A DNA stretch of 64,000 nt from Thermoplasmata archaeon (lineage in GTDB: Archaea; Thermoplasmatota; E2; DHVEG-1), in NCBI GenBank assembly GCA_014894395.1, contig JADBLO010000094.1, positions 346-64,345 on the forward strand, read 5' to 3'. Positions 14,878 to 64,000 of the stretch are shown here, one piece after another; the stretch's first letter is position 1; every line of letters begins with the position of its first letter. A program made the position numbers and the translations under genes. The notes below the pieces were generated by a model. The model did not search any database and was not told the DNA's origin. It saw only the letters and a list, made by a program, of their open reading frames with translations.

Positions 14878-14952
14878 ATTGGTTGTTCGATTGTACCACT
14901 TTGGAATGAAAATTGGTAATAATAACTCATGCTATACCTGATATGAGTAAAT

Positions 14953-14968
14953 ACTCATCTTTACCTTT
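14953..14968 (-). promoter_or_regulatory. Putative TATA-like box for the transcription unit starting at 14877.
   Basis: The reverse complement of cctttatatatctaaa contains atatataaag, about 80 nt upstream of the start codon, in a 122-nt intergenic gap. Confidence 0.2.
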
Positions 14969-14999
14969 ATATATCTAAATTTATCTCATTTTTATCCTG

Positions 15000-24423: not shown

Positions 24424-24428
24424 ACATT

Positions 24429-25022: not shown

Positions 25023-25024
25023 AC

Positions 25025-31360: not shown

Positions 31361-32409
31361 TCTACCATATTCAGACGAATAAGCTCATCTTTTGTTATAG
31401 ATTTTTTTGTTTTCTTCCCCAGGATTTGTTCTATTTGGGTTGGTGAAAGACCAATCCCAGGTCGTTTGACAGCAAGCATGTTTTTATGGATAATTGCACC
31501 TTTTTTGATGTTTTGGTTCGCGACAATGCTTTTTCTGACCAGCTTCATAATTTCTTTTTCAGAGGGTGTTGGTTTTTTCGCGTAACTCCCCAGGGTTGTT
31601 TCGACGTTTCTGATCGCAGTAACCATCTGTTTGAGTTCCTCTGGTTCAAGCGATGCTTTATGGTCAGGACCTGACAGTGTCTTGTCAAGAGTGAAATGCT
31701 TCTCGATAACTACGGCTCCAAGAGTTGCCGCCATAATCGGAACGATCATGCCCAGTGTATGATCCGAGTATCCAACCAGACAGCCCAGGGTGTTTTGCAT
31801 GGTCAGCATAGCACGCAGGTTTACTTCCGCTAGCGGGCAGGGGTAATTGGTAGTACAGTGAAGGGCGATAATCTGATGGTTCCCAGTTGCATGAATCGTT
31901 CGAATAGCAGCACGTACTTCATTAAGGGTGGCCATGCCGGTTCCCAGGATGAGTGGTTTGTGTTTCCGTGCTGCATATTGCAGCGCAGGTGTATTGGTGA
32001 GATCCCCGGAGCCAAACTTATATGCTAAAACAAGGTCCTCTAAGAAATCAATAGCATCAAATGAATGAGGTGTGGATAAAAACAATATCTTTTTTTGATC
32101 GCAATATTTTTTCAGTTGTTTGAATTCATCATAAGTTAGTTCGTAGCGTTTGATCATCTCGAGTTGTTTGAGGTTTTTCCCGATGTTCTTCTTGGCGTAT
32201 GATGCGATTCCTACATCGTCGGTGACGACTCCTTCTGCTTTGAAGGTCTGGAACTTTACTGCATCCGCGTTAGCAGAGACAGCTGCGTCTACGAGTTTCT
32301 TTGCAACGCTAAGTTTTCCGTTGTGGTTCACGCCTGCTTCAGCTATGATAAAACAAGGGTAACCCTCGCCGATATGTCTATCTCCAATCGTTATGTTTTT
32401 TCTCATCAT
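31357..32409 (-). CDS. Nonulosonic acid synthase (NeuB/LegI/PseI family) with a C-terminal SAF domain.
   Basis: YPCFIIAEAGVNHNGKLSVAKKLVDAA...ADAVKFQTF, with a C-terminal antifreeze-like (SAF) domain. Confidence 0.9.
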   Translation of the reverse strand: MMRKNITIGDRHIGEGYPCFIIAEAGVNHNGKLSVAKKLVDAAVSANADAVKFQTFKAEGVVTDDVGIASYAKKNIGKNLKQLEMIKRYELTYDEFKQLKKYCDQKKILFLSTPHSFDAIDFLEDLVLAYKFGSGDLTNTPALQYAARKHKPLILGTGMATLNEVRAAIRTIHATGNHQIIALHCTTNYPCPLAEVNLRAMLTMQNTLGCLVGYSDHTLGMIVPIMAATLGAVVIEKHFTLDKTLSGPDHKASLEPEELKQMVTAIRNVETTLGSYAKKPTPSEKEIMKLVRKSIVANQNIKKGAIIHKNMLAVKRPGIGLSPTQIEQILGKKTKKSITKDELIRLNMVE

Positions 32410-32415
32410 GTTGAG

Positions 32416-33267
32416 CTACCAAATTGTGAATCCACCATCAACAACAAGGTTATGTCCCGTCACATATGAGGAGGCATCGGACGCAAGAAAAATAATACTC
32501 CCGTTAATCTCATCAAGATTTGCTTTTCGCCCAAGAGGTGTTCGTTCAGAATAGTTCTTCAGAAAAATCTTATCTTCTTTCTCATGATAAATCCCACCCG
32601 GCGAGATACAATTTATTCGGATATTATATCCTCCATAGTACGCAGCAAGGTATCTTGTAAAATTAATAAGACCGCCTTTTGCTGCATTATACGAACCATG
32701 AGAGTAAATTCTTTCAAGATCTGGAGATTTCTTCACGTAAATCTCATGGAGATTTGTTCCAACGTACATTCGTTGGTCGTTCCCCACAATACCATACACT
32801 GAGGAGATATTGATGATGGAGCCTTTTCGTTGTTTTTTCATTATTGGGATAAATGTTTGAATCGTTAGAAACGGTATTGTAAGATTTCCTAATAAACCGA
32901 CATTCCAACTTTCCAAGCTAACATCCTCGAATGGTAAATAAAAATCATCGCTTTTTGCACTTGTTGAATTTATTAATATGTCAATTGTTTTTTCTTTCTC
33001 AAGGATTTTTTCTTTTAGTTGTAACAAGTCATTTTTATCTGTAGCATTGACGTTCATCATCTCAAATTTTTCAGAGTAATTTTTTTTAAGCATTGTTATT
33101 TCTTTTGATTCGTCTGTATTACTATCGCAACAATACACTGTCGCATTATTTTCCAATAATGCTTTACAAAATTCTTTGCCCAGATAGCCGTTTCCCCCAA
33201 AGACTAAAGCAACTTTATTTTTTAAATCAAAAAGTTCCATTTTCATAACCCCACTTGTTCTATACAA
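32416..33267 (-). CDS. Short-chain dehydrogenase/reductase (classical SDR).
   Basis: KVALVFGGNGYLGKEF Rossmann motif and a YNAAK catalytic motif. Confidence 0.75.
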   Translation of the reverse strand: MYRTSGVMKMELFDLKNKVALVFGGNGYLGKEFCKALLENNATVYCCDSNTDESKEITMLKKNYSEKFEMMNVNATDKNDLLQLKEKILEKEKTIDILINSTSAKSDDFYLPFEDVSLESWNVGLLGNLTIPFLTIQTFIPIMKKQRKGSIINISSVYGIVGNDQRMYVGTNLHEIYVKKSPDLERIYSHGSYNAAKGGLINFTRYLAAYYGGYNIRINCISPGGIYHEKEDKIFLKNYSERTPLGRKANLDEINGSIIFLASDASSYVTGHNLVVDGGFTIW

Positions 33268-34243
33268 TCTTCTGCCATGATTTTAATGTACTAGAGAGTT
33301 CAGCTTTCTCAATGACGTTCATAACCTCCACGCCATCGTGAAATGTTGATTTTGGTATTTTTCCATTTGATATACATGCAATGAAATCTTCCATTTCTTG
33401 TTGATATGTTTTTTCCCAATCTTGCTTTTCTTTTTTGTATAATACATTGGCATTACCTGTATTATCAGTAAACGTGATTTCTGGTTTTGAATACGTATAT
33501 TCCAGAATTCCTTGAGAACCAAACACAACTCCGTTTCTAATATTTTTCGGATTTAAATAATCTAACTCAATTGTAATAAGTGCATTGTTCTTCAATCTAC
33601 AGATTAAATAGGCGTTGTCGTCGACATCAATTTCTAAAGAAGATATCTTTCCAACTACGGCTAGTAACTCTTTTGGAACACCAAAAAGATAATGCATGAT
33701 ATCAATCTCATGGGATAATGTCCGAATGACACCCCCGCCCAGTTCTTTTCTTGCATAATATTCTTTTCTGTAATCAGCATAAGGATGCCAAAGTGGGAGA
33801 TATTGCCCGCAATAAAGATGCGCTTTATAGACTTCTCCGAGTTTTTTTGAATCAAGAAAATTTTTTACGGTATTGATAACATCATCATATCGTAATGTAA
33901 AACCAACGAGCACTTTTGAAAGATCATACTGTTTCAGTTCTTTTATATCAGAAAGATGATTTGCCAAGGGTTTTTCTACAAAAACCGGTATTTTGTTTTC
34001 AAGCGCTTTTTTCATTGTTTTAATATGGAACGAGGTTGGATTTGCGATAATCACTCCATCAAGACAAAGGTCGTAGAACTCATCCTGATTGTAAATTTCT
34101 TTAATAGTTTGCAAATCAGGAGGTAATTTAGTTAATGCCCCTTTTTTAGTTCGGAGCGCATAAATATCTGTAATTCCTAGTTTGAAAAGACTTCTTGCAT
34201 GTCGTTGCCCGATTGATCCTAACCCAATGATACCAATCTTCAT
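33260..34243 (-). CDS. Gfo/Idh/MocA-family NAD(P)-dependent oxidoreductase.
   Basis: MKIGIIGLGSIGQRHA. 327 aa. Confidence 0.8.
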   Translation of the reverse strand: MKIGIIGLGSIGQRHARSLFKLGITDIYALRTKKGALTKLPPDLQTIKEIYNQDEFYDLCLDGVIIANPTSFHIKTMKKALENKIPVFVEKPLANHLSDIKELKQYDLSKVLVGFTLRYDDVINTVKNFLDSKKLGEVYKAHLYCGQYLPLWHPYADYRKEYYARKELGGGVIRTLSHEIDIMHYLFGVPKELLAVVGKISSLEIDVDDNAYLICRLKNNALITIELDYLNPKNIRNGVVFGSQGILEYTYSKPEITFTDNTGNANVLYKKEKQDWEKTYQQEMEDFIACISNGKIPKSTFHDGVEVMNVIEKAELSSTLKSWQKIV

Positions 34244-35010
34244 TTTTGTTCACTTTTTGTTTTTAATTTTATTGATTTTTTCTGGGAAGAAAACCGTGCT
34301 TTGAACAGTTCTGCGCAATGTTGATTAATTTTTACTATTTCAGGGTGTAAATCGAGGAATTTAATGATTTCAGCTGTCGACTTCTTGTAGGTGTCTTTCC
34401 CAAGTGCTTCAAACAAAGCTAAAAAAAATTCATAATCCTCTGGATAATCAAGGGTTAATCGATAGTTTTCTCGTATTAGTTCTTTTGGAGTACTCATTTT
34501 GATGACGATAAACCTTTCTGGTGTAAAATAATCTCCCCAGATTTCCGTGTCTTTTTCTTCTTTTATTTCAAGAACCTTTTTTAAAGCTTCTACCTTAATA
34601 CCATAAAAGTAAAAACCGTGTGGCAAATCGAAAGTTCGTATTAAATCAGCACCTGTTTTTTGATATTCTTTAATCATATCATCAATGAAATCATATCCAA
34701 CCAATGGACAGTCTGCCGTGACATTAATAATATAATCAATTTTGTAGTATTGAGCAGCCATATACAGACGTTCTAAAACATCAGCTTCACTACCTCTGAA
34801 GCATTTCACGTGTTCTCTTTTAGCGATTTGACAAAGAACATCATCTTGGGAATTTGTAGAAGTAGCAATAATAATCTCATCAACACTGCTGCACAGTTTT
34901 AACCTATCGATCATCAGCGCTATTATCTCTCTATTATGTATTTTAAGGGTGAGCTTGAGAGGTAATCGGGTTGATTTCATCCTAGCGGTTATTAAAAAAC
35001 CTATTTTCAT
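34240..35010 (-). CDS. CMP-nonulosonic acid synthetase (acylneuraminate cytidylyltransferase, NeuA/LegF-like).
   Basis: MKIGFLITARMKSTRLPLK. 256 aa. Confidence 0.85.
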   Translation of the reverse strand: MKIGFLITARMKSTRLPLKLTLKIHNREIIALMIDRLKLCSSVDEIIIATSTNSQDDVLCQIAKREHVKCFRGSEADVLERLYMAAQYYKIDYIINVTADCPLVGYDFIDDMIKEYQKTGADLIRTFDLPHGFYFYGIKVEALKKVLEIKEEKDTEIWGDYFTPERFIVIKMSTPKELIRENYRLTLDYPEDYEFFLALFEALGKDTYKKSTAEIIKFLDLHPEIVKINQHCAELFKARFSSQKKSIKLKTKSEQK

Positions 35011-35031
35011 GATTGTTCACGAGTATCCGTA

Positions 35032-36093
35032 TTATATGTTTGTGAAGGTATCCAGATTCAATGTTTTAAACTTATACTCAATTTTAGTGAAATCAATCAC
35101 TTCGTCTTTTTTAATATCGACTTTCGCTTTAGAACCTAAGAGATATAAGAACTGTTTTTGTTGAATCGTGCTTTCTTCCGGCGTTCGTTTGAACCAGAGA
35201 TTCAAAGTGGAGAGTTTTTCACCTTTTTTAATATCCCGCTTTGCGACTATTGCTTTTTTCATAGGTCCAACATTCCCATATGCTTTTTCGGGTTCACTAA
35301 GTGTTATTTGTCCACTGCCATGGATTTCGAGTGCTACTTTCATAAGATCACGGATGCAGCTCATGTGTTTCTTACCAACAGCAGCATGGTAGTCGATGCG
35401 TTCTTTTCCAGGATATGGTGTGTAATGTTTCTCTAGTATAGGGAAACCCATGAAAGCGGCTGCAACACTGATTCCTGCGTTATTCGGGTCGTCGAATCCG
35501 GTGTGGTCAGCGTACCCAACTGGAAGATGAAACAGGTTCTGGATAGCATGCATTTTTGCCAGATTGATATCTGAATAGTCCGTTGGATAACTCTGAAACC
35601 CGTACATGAGCAGAATATCGTGTTTCTCCTTATGTTTCAAGAAATCAACTGCATAGGAGATATCGTTGATGGAAGAGCCCCCAATCCCAAGGATAATACG
35701 ACCATCAAACTTAGCTATCTCTGAAAGCATAAAATGATCGTTAAGACTTGTTGCATGAAGTTCTATAGCGTGAACCTTTTTTTTCTTACGGATGATGTAC
35801 TGGATGCTTTCTACATCATCGCATAGCACGATAATCTCAAGCTTTTTTTTGGCGGTATAAGATAAGATGTCATTCCATTGATTTTCTGTAAAAATCCAAT
35901 GTTTCATCGTCTGATATAAAGGATGTGTTTTTTTTATATAACTATCAAGGTTTAATAAAAGATGGAATTTAATTGCATTCAGCCTTAATGAGGCAATCTC
36001 CTCGATCATTTGATAAAGGTATTTGATGTCTCCTTCATGATTATATGCGGTTTCAGCGATGATATAGGGATTAAGAGTATAGTTCTGTATCAT
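35032..36093 (-). CDS. Second NeuB-family nonulosonic/ulosonic acid synthase paralog with a SAF domain.
   Basis: PYIIAETAYNHEGD, a NeuB TIM-barrel plus a C-terminal SAF domain. 353 aa. Clearly distinct from the 31357..32409 copy. Confidence 0.85.
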   Translation of the reverse strand: MIQNYTLNPYIIAETAYNHEGDIKYLYQMIEEIASLRLNAIKFHLLLNLDSYIKKTHPLYQTMKHWIFTENQWNDILSYTAKKKLEIIVLCDDVESIQYIIRKKKKVHAIELHATSLNDHFMLSEIAKFDGRIILGIGGSSINDISYAVDFLKHKEKHDILLMYGFQSYPTDYSDINLAKMHAIQNLFHLPVGYADHTGFDDPNNAGISVAAAFMGFPILEKHYTPYPGKERIDYHAAVGKKHMSCIRDLMKVALEIHGSGQITLSEPEKAYGNVGPMKKAIVAKRDIKKGEKLSTLNLWFKRTPEESTIQQKQFLYLLGSKAKVDIKKDEVIDFTKIEYKFKTLNLDTFTNI

Positions 36094-51507: not shown

Positions 51508-53994
51508 TTACTGGTAGCCACCGATTTTTAACGTAGGATCGCCGAGCAACACCCATTGTTGAACGGATTTTGGATGTCCCGCAGCAAGATCGGTCATGTC
51601 GAAGGTATTGACGTAGCTTGTCAGAGTCTGCTGGTATGCTTGCCCTAGGATATCGAGTCCTTCCGCTCCGTACTGTTTGAAGAATTCAATGGTGATCCAT
51701 CCGTCACCACCGCCTGTTGTGAGATCAATACCAGGCATACCATACCCAAGCCCTGTGTTTCCCATGGTAGCGATGGCACCGCCATGTGGGTTTCGAATCA
51801 GTCTCCAACTGAATGCTTCTGGAACCGGCGTCCCGTAACACCACATGTGTATTTTTGGGAAGTTCGGAAACACATAAATCATAGCATCAAGAAGCCCATA
51901 CACCATCGAGACATTGAACTGACTGTTATGACAACCACCAATCACTGCAATGGGGAGTTTCTCTTCATTTCGAATGGTATCCATCGGGAATATCGGCTTT
52001 GTAAAATATGGTGACCAAGGACGCAGCGTGGTTACTTCAAGCCCGGTGATGCTTCCATATTTACGATTTCCTGGAATACCAGGATAATGATCAGCCCACA
52101 CGTTTGGACTGCCGTGACCGGAAAGGAAAATAAAACCAGCACCTTCGTTCCATGCATTAATGACGTCCTGCTCTCCGGTGTATTTACCATTGGATGCCCA
52201 GATGATATCACGTTGGAACTCTTCCGGCATGTAATACAGAGCACCGCCTCTGCCAAGTAACGCCTGTTCACCAGTGGTATATTCTCCTTCGTAGTACATC
52301 TCTGTGTTATTTCGCCAGTCTTCAAACACGATATCATCGGTGCTATTTTTTATCCACACATGGATGCTGCTGAGATTCCCGTATGGTTTGGGGTCATAGC
52401 TTTTTCCCCGGATGGTAAGAACCTCATCAAGATAGCTCATGTTTGCCCAGAAGTAGAATTCGTTACAATAGGCTTCTCCATCATTGGGGACATAGGTAAA
52501 ATCGGTGTTGCCAAGAACATTTCCTTCTGAAACAGTCACGATTTCAGCGATGGGTAAACCTGGGTAATGGTTGATCCGTAAATTATCATTATGGTTGAAG
52601 GTGAGGTTGGTCTCTTTGATTTTGTCAACGGTGACATTGATTGTTTCAATGGGTCCGTATTCTGCAGAAGGGTTGCTGCTCTGCGCATAAATCGTGTATG
52701 CTCCTGTTGGGAGACCAGTTGTGTCCCATTGTATGTTTAAATCCTTTTGGTCAAGGAACCCGTCACCACTGATAACCGTCATTTTCTTGAACCACTCAGC
52801 CCCGTAGGTAGTAGTCTCATAGTTGATGATTTTTTTGACCACAGTTCGTACCTCAGCAACGCTTACGCAAGCAAGTCTGCCAAGAGCAACATCAGGGTAG
52901 AGATCAAGTCCTGTGTCATTTTCAACCCCTGGTTTTCCCCACGCAGCAAAAACCCCATCACCATTGGGATCCCAGCTTGAGAAATTTCCTCCGTTTTCGT
53001 AGATATCAGCATAGTATAAATCACTGATAACACCAGGGTCAAAATATGTTACTTCAGCGGTTAAGGGGAATTTCGGGTCGTCATAGAGATTGGTGTATCG
53101 AACAGGAACATTCCAGCCTTTGCTGCCTTGGTTAGCATCGTCTCTGGGTTTTGCACAAAACATGCTTTTCAGTCCACCGATGAGCAGGACTGAGGTTATC
53201 CCCTGGGTTTCTATAGCGTCTTTGATGAAGTATTTGATTTGTTCTGGTTTATCAACACCGACATACTCGGCATAAATATCCTCTGTGGTTTTCAAATATG
53301 TACTAACATTATAACTGTTTTTATGATCGATAAGTGGTTGAAGTGCGCTTTCAAATTTTTCTGGTGCAATGATGACTAGATCATATGCGCTGGTTGCTGG
53401 AAACGGGGAATGCGCTAAAGGTGTATAGGTAACACTGATGTCTGCGTTGTTTGCTATCTGTAAGGTTCCTGTTGCTGGTGTGTATCGAATCGGATAATAA
53501 TGAATAGAAAGGAAGGTAACATGTTGGTTGTTTTTGTTTAATCCGACGCCGGTTGTTGTGGTGTACCAGGTTGTTGGATATGGTGTTGTCATTGCATAAA
53601 TGGATTCATCTTTCATCGTGGTACCGGCAGCGATACTTTGATATTCTGGGGTGAGGGGAAGGAGCGCAGCTGCTGGTTTGATTTCTTGGTCGATATACTG
53701 AGTGGTGATGTCTTGTGGGGTAAGAGAAACACGAATATCGGTTGATCCAAATGGTAGTTCAATGATATGAACGAGTTCTGGAAGTCGTGGATGACCTGTG
53801 ATGGAGAGATACGTTGAAGACCCTGCGAGTTCAAGCATGATATAATCGTTGTTTGCTGATTGGATCTCCACCTGTGGTGTGGAGAGATGTTGAGATAGAG
53901 ACATGGTTGCCTGTTGGTTGGTTTTTATTCCTACGACTCCTAGTGTGGAGCCAACAAGAATTCCTACAATAAACAGTATTGCTATTTTTTTCAT
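51508..53994 (-). CDS. Secreted gingipain-like (peptidase C25 family) cysteine peptidase-domain protein.
   Basis: Signal peptide, then the C25-like N-terminal block LVIIAPEKFESALQPLIDHK...SVLLIGG. Candidate catalytic His (FLSGHGSP) and Cys (IGGCHNS) lie about 60 aa apart. 828 aa. Confidence 0.55.
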   Translation of the reverse strand: MKKIAILFIVGILVGSTLGVVGIKTNQQATMSLSQHLSTPQVEIQSANNDYIMLELAGSSTYLSITGHPRLPELVHIIELPFGSTDIRVSLTPQDITTQYIDQEIKPAAALLPLTPEYQSIAAGTTMKDESIYAMTTPYPTTWYTTTTGVGLNKNNQHVTFLSIHYYPIRYTPATGTLQIANNADISVTYTPLAHSPFPATSAYDLVIIAPEKFESALQPLIDHKNSYNVSTYLKTTEDIYAEYVGVDKPEQIKYFIKDAIETQGITSVLLIGGLKSMFCAKPRDDANQGSKGWNVPVRYTNLYDDPKFPLTAEVTYFDPGVISDLYYADIYENGGNFSSWDPNGDGVFAAWGKPGVENDTGLDLYPDVALGRLACVSVAEVRTVVKKIINYETTTYGAEWFKKMTVISGDGFLDQKDLNIQWDTTGLPTGAYTIYAQSSNPSAEYGPIETINVTVDKIKETNLTFNHNDNLRINHYPGLPIAEIVTVSEGNVLGNTDFTYVPNDGEAYCNEFYFWANMSYLDEVLTIRGKSYDPKPYGNLSSIHVWIKNSTDDIVFEDWRNNTEMYYEGEYTTGEQALLGRGGALYYMPEEFQRDIIWASNGKYTGEQDVINAWNEGAGFIFLSGHGSPNVWADHYPGIPGNRKYGSITGLEVTTLRPWSPYFTKPIFPMDTIRNEEKLPIAVIGGCHNSQFNVSMVYGLLDAMIYVFPNFPKIHMWCYGTPVPEAFSWRLIRNPHGGAIATMGNTGLGYGMPGIDLTTGGGDGWITIEFFKQYGAEGLDILGQAYQQTLTSYVNTFDMTDLAAGHPKSVQQWVLLGDPTLKIGGYQ

Positions 53995-54266: not shown

Positions 54267-55409
54267 TTACTTGTTTTTGACTTCTTTAACACTAAGAAAT
54301 TCAGCGGCGTCCCCCTTGTAAATTGTTGGTGTCACAGTAATTTCCACTAACAACTCAGTATGTTCTTTGGTGAATAACACAGTTCTAAAAGAGTTTGAAG
54401 TAACACCTTTTAATCTATTGAGATAGTATTTTCTGGCATCCTCAAAGCCGTGAGGAGCGATAAAAACAAAAAAACTCTTCTGTAAAAGTTCATTACTTTC
54501 ATAACCGAGAAAATCAGCAAAGGAATTGCTAATTTGTTTGAAAATCCCTCTCTGTACGACCGCAACGACTTCATTCGTATCATCAATAATGAGACGATCC
54601 TCCATTTTTTCTTTCATAAAAATTTTGTCATCCGCGGGGATATTTCTTACGAGGTTTTTCTCATCAATCTGAATTTTTTCTTTTGATTCAAAATAAGGGA
54701 TAACGCGATCAGTAAACATTTTCTCCTGGTTTATAAGATTTCTTCGTCGCTCTTCGATATCGTTTTCCAATTTTTCAATTCGTACTGTTTTTCTTTCAAG
54801 GTCCTCTAACATGGTCTGCATTTTTTGAAGAATAGTATCTGACACTTTTTTTAGTTCAACCGTGCTCTCTGAGAGAAGAGACGTCTGAGGTTGCTGATTG
54901 ACGTTCGCATTTTTTGCAAAGAGAGACTTGACTCGCACAGAAGTAGGTTCCTTCTCCATAATTTTCATCGCTACCGGTTCTTTTTTACGGAGCATCGTCG
55001 GGGTTTCTACACCTTTTAAGACGTACTGATAATCGATGAGAACAACAAGGAGCAGACAACCAAACAGACCATAGTGATAGACATATGCTATATCCATTGG
55101 GCTAAACATAATGGTGAACCCCAAGCTCGATAACATCACAGAGGTCGGGAGGAAAGAGAGAAGTAAATTTCGTTTACCGGACCGTAGATGCAGATACATA
55201 TCGGCGAGTATAATCATCAAGGAAAGTAATCCCAGTTGCACGTTGCTCAATCCTGATAAAAGATAAAAGGGCGTGAGTTCAAAGATGAACTTTGGTTCAA
55301 AGGCGGCTCTGAAAAAGAAAATAAACACGAACTTCACCAAGAGATAAATTGAAAAAAATATGAATAGGCAACAGGGAAAAAGCCAAGAACGACGACTATA
55401 CTTTTTCAT
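54267..55409 (-). CDS. Membrane protein with N-terminal TM helices, a coiled coil and a C-terminal PAS-like domain.
   Basis: 4-5 hydrophobic helices, an LEDLERKTVRIEKLENDIEERRR coiled coil, and a PAS-like C-terminal fold. 380 aa. Confidence 0.5.
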   Translation of the reverse strand: MKKYSRRSWLFPCCLFIFFSIYLLVKFVFIFFFRAAFEPKFIFELTPFYLLSGLSNVQLGLLSLMIILADMYLHLRSGKRNLLLSFLPTSVMLSSLGFTIMFSPMDIAYVYHYGLFGCLLLVVLIDYQYVLKGVETPTMLRKKEPVAMKIMEKEPTSVRVKSLFAKNANVNQQPQTSLLSESTVELKKVSDTILQKMQTMLEDLERKTVRIEKLENDIEERRRNLINQEKMFTDRVIPYFESKEKIQIDEKNLVRNIPADDKIFMKEKMEDRLIIDDTNEVVAVVQRGIFKQISNSFADFLGYESNELLQKSFFVFIAPHGFEDARKYYLNRLKGVTSNSFRTVLFTKEHTELLVEITVTPTIYKGDAAEFLSVKEVKNK

Positions 55410-57493: not shown

Positions 57494-57654
57494 CCATCCA
57501 TACTTCTTATCTTTATTCGTATATTAAAGTCTTTCTTTGAAAAGATATTTTTTCGATAGTAATTAAGAGAGGAAGAGCATGACAAAATGACTTTACATTA
57601 CATACAAAAAATAAAATTTTTATTAAAAAAAAGGGGGGGATTGGTGTTGTATCA

Positions 57655-58827
57655 CTATGTTGTCGTCAGATGATATCGTATCGCGGCAACATAGTCACCA
57701 GCCATTTGACCTATGGGAATGTTACATTTATACTCAACATCATCGGTGGTCAGATTGGTACCATTAGCTTGTGCAAGATGGTATGTTCCAATAAGTCCGT
57801 AGAAATAGATCCCACTACCGCTCGCAGTGAAATTGTCGAAGATATCTAAATCGCCACCGCGTACCCAAATCCTCTCTCGAGAAATCGTTGCTCCTGGAAA
57901 CGTTCTATGAGTTAAATCCTCGACGTCGGTAGAGAGAGAATAATTCCCGTTCGACCGTGTCACGAGTGTTATATTACTGTTCGCAGTCGCATTTTCTCCT
58001 GGGTGACCAATAATAGTCGGCCATCCAGCACTGACGATCTCACTATACGAGTAAATACCGTACTCATCGTTTATCCAAATAGTGCTCGATTGTGGGGCAT
58101 CTTCACCACTATCAGTAACTGCTATTTTAAAATTCCAGGACTCAACATCATCCGTTGTATTGTAGGTATTGTTCCAGATCCCGTCACCAGGAGCATACCT
58201 CACCTGATAACCTGGAATAAACGAAAATGTTAGATTATGACATTCTGTATGACCAGCACTCCCATAAGGATCGAACCCGACTGTATCTGAATGTGTCCCT
58301 TCAGTAATCTCACCACCATGAGGCCATAGCATCCTCCAGACAGCAGTACCCGTAGTGTTCTTATATTGAAGGAATAGATTCCAATTTCCACCCGATGTTT
58401 GATTATAAGTGCTACCGTCGTTCCCTTGATCATACCAAGCGGTGATATTTATGAATTGAATATCATCCCAGCCCTGATCACTACTGATATTAACAATGAA
58501 TCTGTATTCTGCACTATCGTTTATATCATTCTGTGCATTGAGTCTGGATACCCAGGTTCCAGACTGTTTGTACTGAAAATCATACCAATTGATTCTCGGA
58601 GGAAAATGCAGGACTGTTACATTCAAAGTTGTTGAATTATGCCATATATCAGGGATATCACCAGGATCGGCTTTCCCAATCATGATGATTGGTCCAAAAA
58701 GAAAGATATTTACTACTAGAGAGACGATTATTGTTATTCCTATTATAGCAGAAAACAACTTTCTCTTTCGTTCCATCTCCATTTTTTTTACCTTCATCCA
58801 CTCCATTATCAAGTTACTTACCGACAT
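57655..58827 (-). CDS. Sequon-rich secreted protein, member of a three-gene paralogous family (WYDQGN...NLFLQY..TGTAVWRM motif family).
   Basis: N-terminal anchor/signal. About 17 N-x-S/T sequons in 390 aa. Conserved blocks are shared with 59019..60140 and the repeats of 60286..64000. Confidence 0.6.
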   Translation of the reverse strand: MSVSNLIMEWMKVKKMEMERKRKLFSAIIGITIIVSLVVNIFLFGPIIMIGKADPGDIPDIWHNSTTLNVTVLHFPPRINWYDFQYKQSGTWVSRLNAQNDINDSAEYRFIVNISSDQGWDDIQFINITAWYDQGNDGSTYNQTSGGNWNLFLQYKNTTGTAVWRMLWPHGGEITEGTHSDTVGFDPYGSAGHTECHNLTFSFIPGYQVRYAPGDGIWNNTYNTTDDVESWNFKIAVTDSGEDAPQSSTIWINDEYGIYSYSEIVSAGWPTIIGHPGENATANSNITLVTRSNGNYSLSTDVEDLTHRTFPGATISRERIWVRGGDLDIFDNFTASGSGIYFYGLIGTYHLAQANGTNLTTDDVEYKCNIPIGQMAGDYVAAIRYHLTTT

Positions 58828-59018
58828 GCTAACAAATGTCAGGTATACTTTTTGGGAGTCAACGTATATAAAGATTTTTTGTCAAAACGTCACTCTGTAA
58901 TAGAATCATTTTAAGATAATGTTTAGATAAAAATTGATGCGATTAAAAAAAACCAAAACCGAATAATGGGTTAATATCTGATTTCAAAATAGAGGGATTA
59001 CAGTGTGTTGATAAATTC

Positions 59019-60140
59019 CTATGTAGTTTTTAGATGATAACTTATAGGAGCTGTATACTCCCCCGAGATCTGACCGAGAGGGACATCACACGTATACTCA
59101 ATATCGCTCGTTGAAAAAATCGTTCCATTTGCTTGATTACGATGATATGTTCCAGCAGATCCATAGAGGTAGACTACATCATTAAAGGCGGTGAAATTAT
59201 TTGGTAGAGCCAAATCACCACCTCGCACCCAAATCCTTTTACGAGACATATTTGCAGTAGGATGTGTTCGATGAGTTAAGTTCCCTACATCTACAGAAAG
59301 CGAATAATTCCCGTTCGAACGAGTGATAAGGGTAATATTGCTTTCTGCTGTCGCATTTTGCCCAGGATATGCATAGATAACAGGCCATCCCGCACTTATC
59401 ATTTCAGTATACGAGTAAATCCCGAATTCATCTCGAACCCAAGAAACGTACCCTTGCTCATTTGAAGCGTAGATTTTAAAATTCCAAGATTCAGGATCAT
59501 TTGTAGCATTACGGGATGTATTCCAACTCCCATCCCCAGGAGCATATCGAAATTGATATCCGGGGACAAACGAAAATGTTAGATTATGACACTCGGTAAA
59601 TCTTGGACTACCAATGGGATCATGCACAACTCTCTCGGTATATTGACCCGCAGTAACCTCGCCACCATGAGGCCATACCATCCTCCAGACAGCGGTTCCT
59701 GTAATGTTTTCATACTGAAGGAACAAATTCATGTTCCCACCAAACGTCTGGTTATAGACGGTATTCTCATTTCCTTGGTCATACCAAGCGGTGATATTCA
59801 CATACGTGATATTTTCCCATTGATAATCACTACTAATATTGACAATAAATCTGTATTCTGCACTAGCGTTTACATCACTCGGTGTATTAAGTCTAGAGAT
59901 CCAAGTCCCAGACTGATTGTACTGAAAATCATACCAATTAATCCTTGGCTCTCTATAGAGAACCGTAACGTTTAAGGTCGTCGCGTTATACCATTCTTCG
60001 CTAATATTTCCAGGATTAGCTTGCGCATTTTTCACGACAAAAGGCTCAAGACAGAACATACCAGTGAATAATGATAATACCAACGCTGTTACAACGAGAA
60101 CCGAATATATGCTCTGCTTTCCCATCCTTCTAGCCCTCAC
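59019..60140 (-). CDS. Sequon-rich secreted protein, paralog of 57655..58827.
   Basis: Signal peptide and about 20 N-x-S/T sequons in 373 aa. Shared blocks NITAWYDQGN, NLFLQYENITGTAVWRMVWPHGGE and NLTFSFVPGYQFRYAPGDGSWN. Confidence 0.6.
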   Translation of the reverse strand: MRARRMGKQSIYSVLVVTALVLSLFTGMFCLEPFVVKNAQANPGNISEEWYNATTLNVTVLYREPRINWYDFQYNQSGTWISRLNTPSDVNASAEYRFIVNISSDYQWENITYVNITAWYDQGNENTVYNQTFGGNMNLFLQYENITGTAVWRMVWPHGGEVTAGQYTERVVHDPIGSPRFTECHNLTFSFVPGYQFRYAPGDGSWNTSRNATNDPESWNFKIYASNEQGYVSWVRDEFGIYSYTEMISAGWPVIYAYPGQNATAESNITLITRSNGNYSLSVDVGNLTHRTHPTANMSRKRIWVRGGDLALPNNFTAFNDVVYLYGSAGTYHRNQANGTIFSTSDIEYTCDVPLGQISGEYTAPISYHLKTT

Positions 60141-60285
60141 TAGTTTTTACCTAATATTTTGTAACATGATTATATGTTAGGGTGCATGTCACTAATTCAT
60201 TGTCCATGATATAAAACTTTGGGTCTTGAATTTCTTTATTTTTTTTCAAGGAATCGAATTACGTAGCAATGGGGTGATCTTAATT

Positions 60286-63200
60286 TTATTTCTGTTTTAT
60301 CTTCGTGGCTACATGAGCCGTATATTCTCCTTGGATGGTACCAAAGGGTATGTAGACATTGAACTGCACGTAAACGATTTGGCTTGTGTTGTTTTTATGA
60401 AAAATACCTGATATGTTGATTACGTCAATAGCATTTAATTCTCGGATGCCATTAAACATCATATCGGCAGTGATATCATCATTAGGATCTGCATTTGCAC
60501 AGATATAGACATTATTTGCGATGGGGATGATATCACCTGACGAAACATTCGTAAGATTCTCTTCAAAAAATATACTAATATTATAGTCGTAGTTTGAAGA
60601 ATAGGTGATGTTGACAACATTCGATGTCGCATTATACCCTGGTGCTGCTCGGACATCCACCCAGTTTTTTTCAGGCAAAATAGTAGCAAATTTGTAGACT
60701 CCATACTCATCCCTCTTCCATGATTTTAAGCCAGAAGCGCCTATAACGGTGATGTTAAAGTTCCATGAAAATGAATCGCTGGTAGTGTTTTTGGTAGTGT
60801 CCCAAGTGTTATTACTGCACGCCCACCTCGTTTGACTTAGAGGTTTGAAACTTATGTTGACAATCCTCGTGGTGCTATTGATAATGGTTTCGGAACAATT
60901 TCCACTGATGATTTGCGCTTCATTATCTGGCCAAAGCATTCTGAACTGCGCAGTTCCAGTGGTATTCCTATATTGCAGAAACATATTTAGATTGCTGCCT
61001 AAGGTTTGATTGTAACTGCTGGTCTCGTTACCATGGTCATACCAAGCCATGATATTGACGTATTGAATATCAACCCATCCATTTCTATCAGTGATGTTGA
61101 TAGTAAACAAATATTCATTGTTAACATCAAGAAGCCCGGTGATATTATTTAGTTTGGAAACAGTACTATTCCTTAGATCATAGAAGTTTATTATCGGTGA
61201 AGAAAGATTTGGAGTGTAAAAACACCTCGCATCAGCGTTCAGTGGTGCTGGTTCATCAGATGAACCAGCTTTCTTTCCTATGCTGTAGAACTCATAATAA
61301 CCTCTGCCATTTGGAAAATTAAAACTCCAGTTCCAAGGGACATTAGAATCAGGATTAGAGGCATTATTCCAGATCATCCAATCTATAAAAGTTGTTGCAT
61401 TGACCCATATCTGATCGATATAGACATCATCCTCATTATCTGATCCACTACATTCAAACATGATTTGTGCAGTAGCTGTGAGGTCGTAAGCAGACTCATT
61501 TATCCACACGGTTGTATGGTAGAACTGATCATTAACAAAATCATCATTTGCATCATAATCAGCCACAGTCACCCAGCCAGTTCCATCATTGTACTTCACC
61601 CAGAAATCTTCAATAATTTCCACTGTATAGAACCAGAACTCGACTTTAAGATAATTATATCCGGGGGTTTCAAGATCCATGGTATTGGTATGATAAAACG
61701 ATGACGCAACACCGCTGTTATCCTGAATATTCGCAGCACTACTTCCTTGATGTGCATATGTTCCACCAGTATATCGTGAACAATCGTCCCCGCCATCAGT
61801 ATAATTGCCCCACCCAAGTTCAAAGTCATCGTAGGTTAACGTATCCCACCCAGTAAAATTATGGTCACTCCAGCGGTAGTACAATGTAACATTATCGACA
61901 GCAGTATAATTAGAAGCAGTAATAATAAAAGGTGATGATGTGACATTGTATGGAGAGAACGGATCAACTGAAGTGTTAAGCGGCATCGTGGTAAAATGAA
62001 ATATGGCAGAGACATTATTTATACTATCATTGACTGCTACTTTCCAATAGTAAGTGATAGAGTAATTCTCGAATTGTGAAAAGACATAACTAACCGTGGA
62101 ATTCGCACTTATACTACTGTTCGTATTTCTTAAAATCCAAACTCCGGTTCTATTCTCATACCAATACACATCAAGTGCAGCTCCCTCAGTATCATTTGCC
62201 CAGATCTGACAAAGGGATTGGAGTTCAACAGTAGTAGTACCATTTGGTGCAGGGGATATGAGTTCAATAGTTGGAGCATTTCCTCTCGGGTTGTAATGAC
62301 ATCTCGCATCAGCATTCAGTGGTGCTGGTTCATCAGATGATCCTGCTTTCCGTCCTATGCTGTAGAATTCATAGTAACCGATACCATTGGAGAAGGTGAA
62401 GTTCCAACTCCAAGGACTGTTCTCATCTGGATTGCTTACATTGTTCCATTTTGTATATCCCTGTTCCTCACTGCCAAAACTATTCCAGGACGGTGGCGTT
62501 GCCCGATATTTTCTCACAAATACATTATCCACCAATACATAATTTGACGAATCCATACTTACCCCATGAACATGCGAAACTAGATAATCAGCGGTTGTTT
62601 TGGTAGAATCTGTTACCGAACGAGCGCTATCGCCAGCTGGAGCAGATGGTGTGATTTTTGCTGAATAATCAGCATCTGAAACATTTATTTTAACATGATA
62701 CCAGGTACCTGTTGAAACAACAGGAAAAGCAGTTCCTATCTGGGTCCAGTTTGTAGGCGCAAAAAATTCAAAAAAACCCCCATCAGCCGCTGAATTCTGT
62801 AACTGCCAACAATATCCATTAGTCCAAGATAAATCATTTACTCTCCAACCAAATTGATGAATAACTCTTGGGGTCCCAGCTAAATACACATCATATTCGA
62901 TAATGCCATTTAGTATCTTGTAGGTGGTACGAATCCTTGTGTCTTGATCGCTTCTATTAGCAGGTATTGAGTTGTCAGGATCATGTCTCAGCGCTGGAGC
63001 TGAATTCCCCTGACTCTGATTAATATAAATTGAATCGGTGTTCCACGAGTCCATTACCCATTTACTTAATCCATTTGAAAAATCATCAAAGAAATAAAAC
63101 GTGTTTGTCCCGTTGCTTGTTGTTGAGGCACTGCTATTTCCGTAGTACATCCAAATGTCTGTATCATTGAGTGAATTGTTTAACCAGAAAGTAGCTTGAG

Positions 63201-64000
63201 TATCGGTAGTATAGTTCTTAAGCCAATAGGATAGTTGTGTTGTATTATCTGAATAACTTATAAATCTAGTATCACCGAAATCACTTCGTGCATGACCATT
63301 GCAGGTAACGTTTCCGCCACTTGTATTTCCTACAATGATTTTCATCTGATAGCCCCCATTTTTTCCAGTTATGGACAACAGCTTTTTGTACGACCAGCAT
63401 GGATTCCACCATGCTGAATTTTGAGAGGAATAATAATACCAGATGGTCACATTTTTCACATCATCACTTGCTGTTGCACTGATCGATAATGGAGAGATCG
63501 TGACGTTGTACGGTGAAATGGAATTGACCTGGGAGGATGGCTTAGATGTGGAATATCCACATTGCGTATCATACTCTGGTGACGATGGTGGATCTTCTCT
63601 ATTGCCTGCCTGATCATACGCTATACTATAGAACCGATAGTGGCCTTCTCCGCTGGGGAAATTGAAATTCCAACTCCAAGGTGTATTTTCATCTCTGCTA
63701 AAAGAAGTCCAAGCATTCCAACTTGATGTGTTACCTGTCCTATATTGATAGTAAAGAGTGACATTTTTAATTCCGCTCAGTTCATCACTTGTATTGGTCA
63801 CACTAATCAGTAGTGGGTTTCCTGTGGCATTATGCCAATATGTGGTAATTGGGTCAACCTGCGAAGAAGGTTTTACAGTTTCATAACCACATGATGTGTC
63901 ATTGCCCGTAAAATACTCGGCATTACTATCATTATCTACAGCAATACTATAGAATCGATAGTATCCTTCTCCATTTGGAAATGTAAAAATCCATGAAATA
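60286..64000 (-). CDS. Giant sequon-rich surface protein with internal repeats; the 5' end lies beyond the window edge, so the gene is partial.
   Basis: The frame stays open upstream of the track start (63801 is an internal GTG) through position 64000. The module PWSWNFxFPNGxGYYEFYSIG.KAGSSDEPAPLNADARC.Y recurs at least 4 times. The C-terminal portion resembles the two smaller paralogs. Confidence 0.65.
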   Translation of the reverse strand, partial: ISWIFTFPNGEGYYRFYSIAVDNDSNAEYFTGNDTSCGYETVKPSSQVDPITTYWHNATGNPLLISVTNTSDELSGIKNVTLYYQYRTGNTSSWNAWTSFSRDENTPWSWNFNFPSGEGHYRFYSIAYDQAGNREDPPSSPEYDTQCGYSTSKPSSQVNSISPYNVTISPLSISATASDDVKNVTIWYYYSSQNSAWWNPCWSYKKLLSITGKNGGYQMKIIVGNTSGGNVTCNGHARSDFGDTRFISYSDNTTQLSYWLKNYTTDTQATFWLNNSLNDTDIWMYYGNSSASTTSNGTNTFYFFDDFSNGLSKWVMDSWNTDSIYINQSQGNSAPALRHDPDNSIPANRSDQDTRIRTTYKILNGIIEYDVYLAGTPRVIHQFGWRVNDLSWTNGYCWQLQNSAADGGFFEFFAPTNWTQIGTAFPVVSTGTWYHVKINVSDADYSAKITPSAPAGDSARSVTDSTKTTADYLVSHVHGVSMDSSNYVLVDNVFVRKYRATPPSWNSFGSEEQGYTKWNNVSNPDENSPWSWNFTFSNGIGYYEFYSIGRKAGSSDEPAPLNADARCHYNPRGNAPTIELISPAPNGTTTVELQSLCQIWANDTEGAALDVYWYENRTGVWILRNTNSSISANSTVSYVFSQFENYSITYYWKVAVNDSINNVSAIFHFTTMPLNTSVDPFSPYNVTSSPFIITASNYTAVDNVTLYYRWSDHNFTGWDTLTYDDFELGWGNYTDGGDDCSRYTGGTYAHQGSSAANIQDNSGVASSFYHTNTMDLETPGYNYLKVEFWFYTVEIIEDFWVKYNDGTGWVTVADYDANDDFVNDQFYHTTVWINESAYDLTATAQIMFECSGSDNEDDVYIDQIWVNATTFIDWMIWNNASNPDSNVPWNWSFNFPNGRGYYEFYSIGKKAGSSDEPAPLNADARCFYTPNLSSPIINFYDLRNSTVSKLNNITGLLDVNNEYLFTINITDRNGWVDIQYVNIMAWYDHGNETSSYNQTLGSNLNMFLQYRNTTGTAQFRMLWPDNEAQIISGNCSETIINSTTRIVNISFKPLSQTRWACSNNTWDTTKNTTSDSFSWNFNITVIGASGLKSWKRDEYGVYKFATILPEKNWVDVRAAPGYNATSNVVNITYSSNYDYNISIFFEENLTNVSSGDIIPIANNVYICANADPNDDITADMMFNGIRELNAIDVINISGIFHKNNTSQIVYVQFNVYIPFGTIQGEYTAHVATKIKQK
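61250..64000 (-). repeat. Intragenic nucleotide repeats, period roughly 1.1-1.3 kb, inside the giant surface-protein gene.
   Basis: Similar DNA blocks occur at about 61255-61380, 62335-62450, 63600-63725 and 63930-64000, all encoding the YYEFYSI...PWSWNF module. Confidence 0.5.

Follow-up and report, generated by a model that had tools for sequence, protein, structure and literature searches.

What do the three adjacent minus-strand genes at the end of the 64,000-nucleotide stretch of DNA analysed here (the window; Table 1) contribute to the surface of a Thermoplasmata archaeon? The sequence-only reading had seen in them a dedicated glycoprotein coat, possibly an S-layer or sheath. Judged from the gene sequences, it is most economical to assign them to a surface coat or an S-layer-like structure, since the products are secreted, sequon-dense, acidic paralogs encoded among membrane-anchored Ig-like proteins.

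Table 1. Genes, domains and signals of the locus (positions within the window).
Feature	Position	Strand	Description	Basis
C25 (gingipain-family) cysteine peptidase	51508-53994	-	secreted, propeptide; Pfam Peptidase_C25 E = 1.9e-52	
4-TM protein	54267-55409	-	polytopic (~4 TM), coiled-coil-like stretch, cytoplasmic PAS domain	
P230	55396-56088	-	signal peptide, small ectodomain, C-terminal TM anchor	
P464	56099-57493	-	10 sequons; signal peptide, ~four tandem Ig-like beta-sandwich domains	
TATA-like box	~57519-57529	-	before P464	
P390	57655-58827	-	390 aa, second stand-alone paralog	ORF
TATA-like box CTTTATATAC	58864-58873	-	~40 nt upstream of P390 ATG	read from sequence
P373	59019-60140	-	373 aa, stand-alone family module	ORF
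TATA-like box	~60209-60220	-	before P373	
Giant, C-terminal 1237 aa	60286-64000	-	multidomain passenger region and C-terminal family module	
Family module of giant, residues ~931-1237	60286-61209	-	extreme C-terminus	
Ig-like motif copy PWNWSFNFPNGRGYYEFYSI, giant residues 889-907	61277-61329	-		repeat search and regex
Other Ig-like motif copies	62354-62406, 63620-63672, 63941-63993	-		
Strain-specific extra unit	61183-62370	-	net ~1077-1086 nt, roughly 359 aa	blastn/blastp against L051
DUF2341, giant residues 240-314	63058-63282	-	Pfam PF10102, E = 2.4e-16	

The three products were confirmed to be paralogs. P373 and P390 share 59% identity over their full length, and the C-terminal 300 aa of the giant belong to the same family (residues 935-1235 against residues 65-371 of P373: 34% identity, E = 5e-46). 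The sequence blocks ascribed to all three are present in P373 and P390, whereas the giant has them only in diverged form. Past its Sec signal peptide (predicted cleavage at about AQA/NPG), P373 contains a conserved 20-aa N-terminal segment (WxNxTTLNVTVLxxEPR) followed by two beta-sandwich domains; the C-terminal module of the giant lacks this segment.

The small paralogs, described earlier as secreted, have Sec-type signal peptides. In both N-termini a hydrophobic segment precedes AQA/NPG or GKA/DPG (read from sequence), which correspond to signal peptidase I type A-x-A sites, and the cleavage region contains neither Cys nor a lipobox. P373 and P390 are thus predicted to be exported via Sec with a cleavable signal peptide. 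Translation of P390 may start at an internal Met (M11 or M17). No C-terminal membrane anchor was found in either protein, and the mature forms are acidic (pI 4.4-5.0).

Sequons were counted as N-x-S/T (x not P), and the numbers expected were derived from composition-preserving shuffles. P390, P373 and the window part of the giant contain 16, 20 and 61 sequons (4.1, 5.4 and 4.9 per 100 aa; earlier counts for the small proteins were ~17 and 20), compared with 4.9, 5.6 and 25.2 expected (z = 5.6, 7.0 and 8.6), and in none of 10,000 shuffles was any of the observed counts reached. The claimed excess over chance therefore stands. Between 47 and 59% of the Asn residues of the three proteins fall in sequons, S and T together making up just 17-20% of the residues. 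Eight further window proteins with a predicted secreted or membrane-anchored location are less dense (0.5-2.8 per 100 aa), while cytoplasmic proteins of the window mostly have one sequon or fewer per 100 aa. Across 120 family modules the median is 3.95 per 100 aa, and over 80% of 70 family members share approximately 15 sequon positions. Such fixed positions are expected of a structural glycoprotein and count for the coat reading.

Among 1.84 billion proteins the family forms 266 clusters at 50% identity, and it is all but confined to Thermoplasmata MAGs. P373 has 404 homologs, none named beyond "hypothetical protein"; an exact look-up of its sequence returned no record, and no description of the family was found in the literature. 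The stand-alone form accounts for 63 of the 120 listed clusters. The other 57 are large members, 48 of which carry the module within 8 aa of the C-terminus, as expected of a co-assembly module; the passenger architectures ahead of it include PKD, Kelch, BNR-like, DUF2341 and apparently LamG-like domains. The small proteins are 55-87% identical across ~40 species, with dN/dS values of 0.08-0.35, equal to or lower than those of neighbouring genes. The description of the small paralogs as rapidly diversifying is contradicted by these values, which indicate purifying selection, and by the retained sequon positions; diversifying selection on P373 and P390 was rejected on the dN/dS values.

The family module is modelled as a self-contained pair of beta-sandwich domains of ~300 aa. 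In the AF2 model of P373 (pLDDT 81) the protein is all-beta from residue 66, with a helix at residues 11-38 ahead of the fold. Foldseek comparison of this model with PDB (50 best matches) and BFVD returned only generic Ig tandems (TM-score ~0.2), among them arrestin, MSCRAMMs, pilins including CsuE, and herpesvirus glycoproteins. P373 and P390 gave nothing significant against Pfam and NCBIfam (the latter matched neither the small proteins nor P464, P230 or the giant), a profile of 70 members had no hits among PDB sequences at E <= 10, and no homology to S-layer families was detectable in Pfam, NCBIfam or PDB sequences.

The giant ORF was called at 60286-63801 and stays open to the window end, which gives a length of at least 1237 aa; full-length orthologs comprise 1869-1885 aa. 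A giant ortholog contains three hydrophobic segments with a K/R-rich, sequon-free loop between the second and third, an arrangement that fits a TM hairpin with the remainder of the protein outside. The statement that no named domain is recognizable is correct for the small proteins and incorrect for the giant, in which DUF2341 is significant (60.4 bits against a gathering cut-off of 23.4; 112.5 bits, in two stretches, in the L004 ortholog) and one whole Ig-like module has weak Pfam matches to Big_3_2, Big_13 and Big_7. As read from the sequence, DUF2341 and a trailing segment are nested within one Ig-like module. By analogy with two other DUF2341 proteins of the window, the trailing segment looks like a LamG-type jelly roll; the nested insert and this segment gave nothing significant against Pfam, and the giant had no matches among PDB sequences.

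The repeated module proposed for the giant corresponds to a 19-aa Ig-like motif (W-x-[WF]-x-F-x-FP[NS]G-x-G[YH]Y-x-FYSI) that does occur four times, but the extension AGSSDEPAPLNADARC accompanies only two of the four copies. Nucleotide repeats of 1.1-1.3 kb, also proposed, are absent: similarity around each copy covers just 53-157 nt (66-77% identity), successive copies start 1077, 1266 and 321 nt apart, and the intervening DNA codes for differing domains. Because the motif is short, self-BLAST of the giant protein gave no self-hits at E <= 1e-3. An assembly artefact was rejected, as the copies are diverged and in frame, and the architecture recurs in dozens of independent assemblies.

Copy-number variation, for which comparative genomics had been suggested, was found in the giant in the form of a 1.08-kb module indel relative to a 95%-identical strain, together with mosaic variation. 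The extra unit, composed of an fn3-like domain and an Ig-like module in which a jelly-roll-like insert is nested, is missing from the ~95%-identical contig L051 and from the other near-clade loci covering that giant region; it is flanked by the direct repeat D3 (61215-61371 / 62292-62448). In the L004 and L005 giants the passenger region is arranged differently.

Forty-four loci were obtained from Thermoplasmata MAGs, two closed genomes among them, and the gene cluster is present in ~40 related species. In most loci the order is giant, small, small, P464-like, P230-like, 4-TM protein. Every near-clade locus that spans both genes has the P373 and P390 lineages next to each other. The expansion inferred earlier is modest: each locus has two small copies and a single giant, and solo copies that lack partner genes occur occasionally.

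P464, whose gene always lies behind the small paralogs, has a C-terminal TM helix between a Pro/Ser linker and a short basic tail. Its AF2 model (pLDDT 87) returned generic Ig/ASH strings in Foldseek, and its N-terminal domain is homologous to that of the giant (34% identity, E = 1e-16, residues 39-160 of the L004 giant); hhalign showed no relationship between the small family and the P464 family (probability 8%). A four-Ig rod followed by a linker, TM helix and basic tail is the usual build of a euryarchaeal envelope anchor, which speaks for a coat. In L024, L040 and L041 a P464-like gene has been duplicated together with the small gene, an argument for one-to-one pairing of anchorless and anchored subunits, as in slaA/slaB. 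The P230 gene, which has a conserved position in the loci, starts 10 nt past P464 and shares 14 nt with the gene that follows; its product had no match in Pfam or NCBIfam. The 4-TM protein (Pfam PAS_9, E = 3.7e-7; NCBIfam sensory_box) has a membrane domain conserved across the cluster and a variable tail, the L041 ortholog being devoid of PAS. Near-clade loci with enough downstream flank also contain the adjacent gene for the C25 peptidase, whose GHGS His motif aligns with RgpB; the exceptions are L011, and L013, in which it lies ~2.6 kb off. In distant clades C25 is not adjacent to the cluster, so that the linkage is limited to the near clade.

P373, P390 and P464 are each preceded by a TATA-like box, a putative promoter element, and oligo-T runs lie behind the stop codons of P373 and P390. 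Together with the tight coupling of the P464, P230 and 4-TM genes, this arrangement is compatible with abundant subunits accompanied by a stoichiometric membrane complex. A scan for bacterial sigma-70 promoters and terminators was uninformative, the host being an archaeon.

The proposed link to a glycan encoded by the locus was not borne out by synteny, since the clusters of most relatives are flanked by unrelated genes; adjacency to glycan genes recurs only in L042 (four sugar genes) and, as a fragment, in L004. No oligosaccharyltransferase was recognized among the window ORFs scanned against Pfam, a set short of some ORFs of at least 150 aa. Other window neighbours encode PQQ/PKD (beta-propeller) and NosD-like (beta-helix) proteins, which are not syntenic in relatives.

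These data are tentatively explained, with a probability that we place somewhat below even, by a glycoprotein coat, or S-layer-like canopy, that assembles itself and is kept in place by anchored partners. The three genes would specify a cell-surface module of ~300 aa that is restricted to the lineage and associates with itself. P373 and P390 would be exported via Sec, N-glycosylated at about 15-20 fixed sites and, probably as a heteromer, would jointly form the bulk of the coat, while the C-terminally anchored, Ig-like P464 and P230 would, with the 4-TM protein, hold it on the cell. The giant would be anchored in the membrane by an N-terminal TM hairpin, plug into the coat via the module copy at its C-terminus and display variable Ig-like, DUF2341 and apparently LamG-like domains of adhesin or carbohydrate-binding type.

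Several observations count against such a coat. The family is without homology to a known S-layer family and its Foldseek matches are generic only; 55-87% identity is unusually high for S-layer proteins; solo copies occur without partner genes; and with 16-20 sequons per ~335 mature residues, one potential glycan site per 17-20 residues leaves little bare surface for the contacts of a two-dimensional lattice. A lattice is also disfavoured by the unordered exterior protein layer, without lattice, of some cultured Thermoplasmatales, members of the class Thermoplasmata (PMC12448462).

The closest parallel to the proposed coat is the SlaA/SlaB system of Sulfolobales, in which an anchorless, sequon-rich, acidic, all-beta exported protein likewise adjoins a C-terminally TM-anchored, beta-rich partner, and the pair is likewise co-duplicated in some genomes. 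There is, however, no sequence or specific fold similarity, the subunits here comprise 330 aa rather than about 1400 aa and are two paralogs, and P464 lacks a coiled-coil stalk. SlaA has about 2 sequons per 100 aa, approximately half the density seen here.

Among uncultured Thermoplasmata, most of which have no described envelope proteins, the family offers a specific candidate for the principal surface glycoprotein of a lineage widespread in soil, sediment and wetland, one that brings defined partners and ~15 fixed predicted glycosylation sites per 330 residues. It also provides a clear annotation signature, as 0 of 120 listed relatives are named beyond "hypothetical protein". How a conserved, putative assembly module goes together with an adhesin-like giant that varies and recombines bears on virus-host and cell-cell interactions. 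These results are of use chiefly for annotation and hypothesis generation, and current views stand.

The main competitor of the coat, though an unlikely one, is an extracellular, thread- or pilus-like fibre, with P373 and P390 as major subunits joined end to end by beta-strand complementation, the giant as adhesin or nucleator with a C-terminal pilin-like module, and P464 and P230 as membrane anchors or assembly factors. Donor-strand-exchange fibres (chaperone-usher/FimH; archaeal threads, bundling pili, cannulae) are likewise built of Ig-like secreted subunits, and there too the subunit fold recurs at the end of a large adhesin-like protein, as the module does in the large multidomain family members, in the manner of FimH- or PapG-type adhesins. 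Archaeal threads are described as heavily glycosylated (10.1101/2022.04.26.489512), and dense glycosylation suits small end-to-end contacts. The N-terminal segment absent from the giant includes L56-x-V58-x-V60, which is conserved yet forms coil, with no regular strand, in the AF2 monomer. The final 35 residues of small family members are conserved and sequon-free, and the generic Foldseek matches include pilins and CsuE. On the other hand, instead of a single incomplete Ig fold the AF2 model has two complete domains of high pLDDT with no missing strand apparent, and searches of Pfam and PDB sequences matched no FimA, TasA, thread or cannula protein. A free donor strand is not in evidence: P0144 retains the N-terminal segment inside a 1089-aa protein, for which reason a free N-terminal donor strand was rejected as a general rule. 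Furthermore, P0241 and P0267 have inserts of 700-900 aa before the last two strands, which stay C-terminal, and P0214 extends C-terminally beyond the module, so that the terminal strands look like cis parts of the fold.

In a sub-variant of the fibre reading, modelled on type V pili, C25 would cleave after Arg66 and the C-terminal strand would be exchanged. P65-R66 is invariant across 70 small members, and in the near clade a gingipain-family peptidase is encoded next to the cluster. Type V pili of Bacteroidota (FimA/Mfa1, matured by Arg-gingipain), taken together with the T9SS cargo that the C25-type sortase PorU processes, resemble the present system in a subunit of ~350 aa with two beta-sandwiches, an invariant Arg near the N-terminus, a locus that includes a C25-family peptidase, and an extreme C-terminal module. 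However, Arg66 is lost in distant members, C25 is missing from the cluster in distant clades, and the putative prosegment holds two invariant sequons, arguing against its removal. The lipoprotein signal of type V pilins is absent, and no FimA, Mfa or CTD profile was matched. Membership of T9SS/PorU was rejected, as no CTD model was hit and C25 scored 45 bits against the NCBIfam PorU cut-off of 420; moreover, archaea have neither an outer membrane nor a T9SS.

It is also conceivable, albeit improbable, that the locus specifies an undescribed archaeal envelope or appendage system. The module would then be both the polymerizing unit and the plug for giant recombining adhesins, a membrane complex of the two anchored Ig proteins and the 4-TM protein (which carries PAS in the near clade) would organize assembly, and the gingipain-type peptidase would mature the subunits in one clade. 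If true, such maturation would be an archaeal counterpart of the protease-assisted strand exchange of type V pili.

Equally doubtful is a lectin-like anchoring module that binds a surface glycan or the anchored Ig proteins and tethers passengers, with stand-alone copies acting as fillers or regulators and not as lattice formers. The C-terminal position of the module behind many passenger types, the linkage of the cluster to anchored partners and a weak CBM-like match (HpiC1-like; E = 0.0011) agree with this possibility, and in the bacterial systems that it resembles (Clostridioides difficile SlpA/CWP with CWB2, Bacillus SLH) one module is shared by the bulk envelope protein and many larger paralogs. 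The HpiC1 match is nevertheless below its cut-off (19.5 bits against 27), and no ligand-binding motif is known. The stand-alone form, which makes up about half of the clusters and is the best conserved, is hard to reconcile with a mere tether. The CWB2 and SLH modules, moreover, are of unrelated fold and sequence; here the envelope is archaeal and membrane-based, the module is almost always extreme C-terminal, and no secondary cell-wall polymer is known.

Finally, the small proteins are very unlikely to be soluble, glycan-shielded, non-structural components of a polymer-degrading or nutrient-binding apparatus formed with C25 and the PQQ/PKD and NosD-like proteins: the neighbouring genes do encode a secreted peptidase (sediment Thermoplasmata are known from the MBG-D literature for extracellular C25 peptidases), beta-propeller and beta-helix proteins, but there is no catalytic or binding signature in Pfam, PDB sequences or NCBIfam, none of these neighbours accompanies the cluster throughout, C25 doing so in the near clade only, and the constant partners are membrane-anchored Ig proteins.

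Two small stand-alone secreted proteins, P390 and P373, are encoded next to a large surface protein (hereafter the giant); their ORFs are listed below with their content of sequons (N-x[not P]-S/T). P390 and P373 share 59% identity over their full length, and the giant matches P373 over residues 935-1235 (65-371 in P373; 34% identity, E = 5e-46). The three-fold paralogy claimed in the sequence-only reading is therefore real, but in the giant it is limited to the C-terminal 300 residues, i.e. to one copy of a family unit of about 300 aa (the module). The giant ORF is stop-free up to base 63999, and the window covers only its last 1237 residues; related contigs encode orthologs of 1869-1885 aa. 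Two plus-strand ORFs antisense to P390 (58589-58900, 103 aa) and P373 (59586-59975, 129 aa) are most likely spurious.

Genes of the module family in the window, with sequon counts observed and expected from shuffled sequences
Gene	Position	Strand	ORF	Sequons	Expected	z
P390	57655-58827	minus	390 aa	16	4.9	5.6
P373	59019-60140	minus	373 aa	20	5.6	7.0
Giant (C-terminal part)	from 60286, open to window end	minus	long ORF	61 (window part)	25.2	8.6

None of 10,000 shuffles of the mature sequences reached the observed sequon counts (maxima of 13 for P390, 15 for P373 and 41 for the giant). Asparagines inside sequons account for 47-59% of all Asn in the three paralogs, with Ser and Thr together forming merely 17-20% of residues. 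The sequon excess noticed at first reading also holds against other secreted proteins: the three paralogs carry 4.1-5.4 sequons per 100 aa, compared to 0.5-2.8 in other predicted exported proteins of the window (e.g. 0.51 in two DUF2341/LamG proteins, 1.2 in both a C25 peptidase and a PQQ/PKD protein, 2.2 in the neighbouring predicted membrane-anchored protein P464 and 2.8 in a NosD-like protein). The trait is family-wide, with a median density of 3.95 per 100 aa in 120 complete modules from representative clusters. The sole non-secreted outlier in the window is a cytoplasmic short-chain dehydrogenase (32416-33267, minus strand; 9 sequons in 283 aa, 3.2 per 100 aa), whose sequon richness is probably an effect of chance or composition.

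A word-seeded search with P373 identified 404 relatives. Those listed are about 340-390 aa long, show 55-86% identity, have no precomputed Pfam domain and, where named, are called only "hypothetical protein" (in a single NCBI record followed by the organism label "Thermoplasmatota archaeon"). When 1.84 billion representative proteins were searched exhaustively by profile, just 266 clusters were returned at E <= 0.001. Scanning one genome per GTDB species revealed 44 family loci, two closed chromosomes included, which originate from soils, lake sediments and wetlands, as judged from isolate names and sample labels. In all, 43 of the 44 are from MAGs labelled Thermoplasmata, Thermoplasmatota, Thermoplasmatales, Euryarchaeota or Methanobacteriota. 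The exception, a 2.2-kb contig (L036; JABMRT010000024.1) assigned to "candidate division KSB1 bacterium", probably reflects misbinning, since all other loci come from archaeal MAGs assigned to Thermoplasmata or a broader parent taxon.

Searches with the module against Pfam, NCBIfam and, by profile, all PDB sequences (E <= 10) gave nothing significant; the sole match was a sub-threshold HpiC1-like one of P373 (E = 0.0011; 19.5 bits, cut-off 27). The AF2 model of P373, built from a 70-sequence alignment (mean pLDDT 81), predicts a signal-peptide helix (residues 11-38), a coil (39-65) and all-beta sandwich domains at approximately 66-250 and 262-372. The 120 complete modules are found in small proteins (63) and large ones (57, up to 4736 aa long), and in 48 of the latter the module ends no more than 8 residues from the C-terminus. 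Several variants depart from this arrangement. In P0241 and P0267 a 700-900-aa Kelch or BNR-like insert lies within the module, ahead of its last two strands, which are kept at the very C-terminus; in P0214 the module comes first, with Kelch repeats downstream; and P0144 (1089 aa) retains the N-terminal segment WHNSSTLNVTVEHEYPRILWYD in the protein interior. Judged by these variants, the two terminal segments more likely belong to the fold in cis than act as free donor strands.

The motif PW(S/N)W(N/S)FxFP(N/S)GxG(Y/H)YxFYSI occurs four times in the giant, with start-to-start spacings of 1077, 1266 and 321 nt. The sequence-only reading had assigned these copies to nucleotide repeats of roughly 1.1-1.3 kb, which proved wrong: nucleotide similarity is confined to 53-157 nt around each copy (66-77% identity), and protein self-BLAST of the giant gave no self-matches at E <= 1e-3. 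The kilobase spacing arises because different domains are inserted between short conserved motif-coding segments. We read the motif as the C-terminal half of a putative Ig-like module about 110 aa long, one example of which weakly matches Big_3_2, Big_13 and Big_7 (E = 4e-4 to 0.02, all under the Pfam cut-offs). Two of the Ig-like modules carry large nested inserts: (i) DUF2341 (E = 2.4e-16) with a segment that, by analogy with the other DUF2341 proteins of the window rather than from a Pfam match of its own, looks like a LamG-type jelly roll, and (ii) a different, beta-rich insert of 165 aa, preceded by an fn3-like domain. Two adjacent secreted paralogs with DUF2341 and Laminin_G_3 domains (1969-4314, 781 aa, and 4340-6688, 782 aa; minus strand) resemble the first insert, and their DUF2341/LamG part shows 28-48% identity to the passenger region of giants in distant loci.

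Full-length giant orthologs (loci L004 and L051) contain hydrophobic segments at about 18-34, 160-176 and 299-315, the loop between the last two being K/R-rich and sequon-free. The predicted topology would thus comprise an N-terminal ectodomain, a TM hairpin and about 1550 extracellular residues with the module at the end. The N-terminal domain of the full-length giant shares 34% identity with the first domain of P464 (E = 1e-16).

Comparison of the window proteins with all fetched loci (tblastn) revealed a conserved gene order: giant, P373-like, P390-like, P464-like, P230-like and a 4-TM protein. The C25 peptidase gene follows next in those near-clade loci whose downstream flank is long enough, with the exception of L011; in L013 it lies about 2.6 kb further downstream, and in distant clades it does not follow the cluster. 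Joint duplications of the small gene with the P464-like gene are present in L024, L040 and L041 (a closed genome), and there are also solo copies of the small gene. P464 is predicted (AF2 model, pLDDT 87) to begin with a signal peptide, continue with about four Ig-like sandwiches in tandem and a Pro/Ser linker, and end in a TM helix with a basic tail; its Foldseek matches are Ig/ASH strings (e.g. hydin, titin and PrgB), and no relationship to the small family was detectable with hhalign (probability 8%). P230, the second predicted membrane-anchored protein, carries a signal peptide and, at its C-terminus, a TM helix. Its gene is overlapped by 14 nt by that of the 4-TM protein, whose membrane part is conserved and whose cytoplasmic tail is variable (PAS in the near clade). 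TATA-like boxes (CTTTATATAC-type) upstream of each of P373, P390 and P464, and oligo-T runs after the stop codons of P373 and P390, suggest that the two small genes are transcribed separately and that P464, P230 and the 4-TM gene form one putative operon.

Some further features were observed around the cluster. The C25 peptidase (51508-53994) aligns only in fragments with gingipain RgpB; the GHGS histidine motif is retained, and the two aligned parts are separated by about 200 residues (roughly 412-609) that lack an equivalent in RgpB. The near clade (L002, L003, L004 and L051) has a conserved gene for a prenyltransferase or squalene-cyclase-like protein (alpha/alpha toroid, about 340 aa) directly upstream of the giant, a place taken in more distant clades by a second copy of the 4-TM protein. 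In L041 (CP070798.1), the gene immediately downstream of the cluster (14905-15399) is archaellin- or type IV pilin-like, as judged by eye from an N-terminus resembling a class III signal peptide.

The most economical model, which we favour tentatively, is that of a self-associating surface module forming a glycoprotein coat. P373 and P390 (anchorless, acidic, pI 4.4-5.0, with predicted fixed glycosylation sites) would make up most of an extracellular coat or S-layer-like canopy, retained on the cell by the co-encoded anchored Ig proteins in a slaA/slaB-like logic. The giant would join this assembly via its C-terminal module copy and expose variable binding-type domains. The main rival, a strand-complemented fibre, including a type V pilus-like variant involving the C25 peptidase and an invariant P65-R66, would suit the dense predicted glycosylation and the placement of the module at the C-terminus of large proteins; we nevertheless consider it rather unlikely, given that the modelled monomer fold is complete, that variants with insertions in the module exist, that the Arg of P65-R66 is lost in distant members and that the C25 linkage is clade-limited. 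That the module serves as a lectin-like anchor is quite unlikely, and a soluble extracellular function is very improbable.

None of the defining sequence features of known S-layer, pilin, T9SS or type V pilus families was found in this family, and no description of it was found in the literature searched. The coat model would work by the same logic as two-component archaeal S-layers and bacterial envelope families with a common assembly module. In cultured Thermoplasmatales species examined in a 2025 study, an exterior protein layer, itself unidentified, has been described (PMC12448462). What appears to be new here is a candidate archaeal surface glycoprotein system based on an unannotated module, the general kind being already known; its value lies in annotation and envelope biology, and it is not surprising in itself.

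Rapid diversification, proposed for this family from the sequence alone, was not borne out for the small paralogs. Between the window and five relatives, dN/dS was 0.08-0.45 for all cluster genes and 0.08-0.35 for the small paralogs, not above P464 or P230, and about 15 sequon positions are occupied in >80% of 70 members, in both paralog lineages. The comparison did reveal copy-number variation in the giant. Relative to L051 (JGI 3300031885, Ga0315285_10006559; about 95% DNA identity), the window contains a net extra 1077-1086 nt at about 61183-62370, encoding roughly 359 aa and flanked by a 157-nt direct repeat (D3). This 1.08-kb unit, a module-number polymorphism between close strains, is also absent from the other near-clade loci covering that part of the giant. 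The passenger region is differently arranged in L004 and L005, and its domain content varies between species. The dS against L051 was 0.51 for the C-terminal module of the giant (60286-61209), whereas it was 0.03-0.11 for P373, P390, P464 and P230, which suggests a mosaic origin by recombinational replacement of this segment.

At approximately 7-45 kb the window contains a large set of sugar-nucleotide and glycan genes, encoding GlmS, several nucleotidyltransferases, a Wzx-type flippase, GT2 enzymes, DegT aminotransferases, C- and O-methyltransferases, an RmlC-like epimerase, two NeuB proteins, a NeuC-type UDP-GlcNAc 2-epimerase, a CTP_transf_3 cytidylyltransferase and a CDP-glycerol transferase. 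Together, the NeuB, NeuC-type and CTP_transf_3 genes (within 30209-36093 and 23374-26005) indicate a predicted capacity for nonulosonic-acid synthesis; the SIS, GHMP-kinase and fused nucleotidyltransferase-HAD-kinase genes of the same regions may, from their Pfam families, represent a heptose pathway. No oligosaccharyltransferase was recognised among the window ORFs scanned, a set that includes some but not all of those of at least 150 aa. P373, P390 and the giant are probably major N-glycan acceptors of the cell, but the dedicated genetic link to this island that had been supposed from their proximity found no support. About 10 kb of other surface-protein genes separate the two, and most relatives have unrelated genes on the flanks of the cluster (e.g. 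for a metallo-beta-lactamase/flavodoxin protein or prenyltransferase-like, ABC transporter or PhoD-like proteins). The adjacency recurs only in L042 (four orthologous sugar genes, 63-74% identity) and L004 (an epimerase fragment). The GC content is 0.34-0.41 at 12000-36000, with negative GC skew over most of the minus-strand sugar genes, and 0.42-0.46 at 36-44 kb, with strongly positive skew (up to 0.29); from this shift in composition, the island may be mosaic or horizontally acquired.
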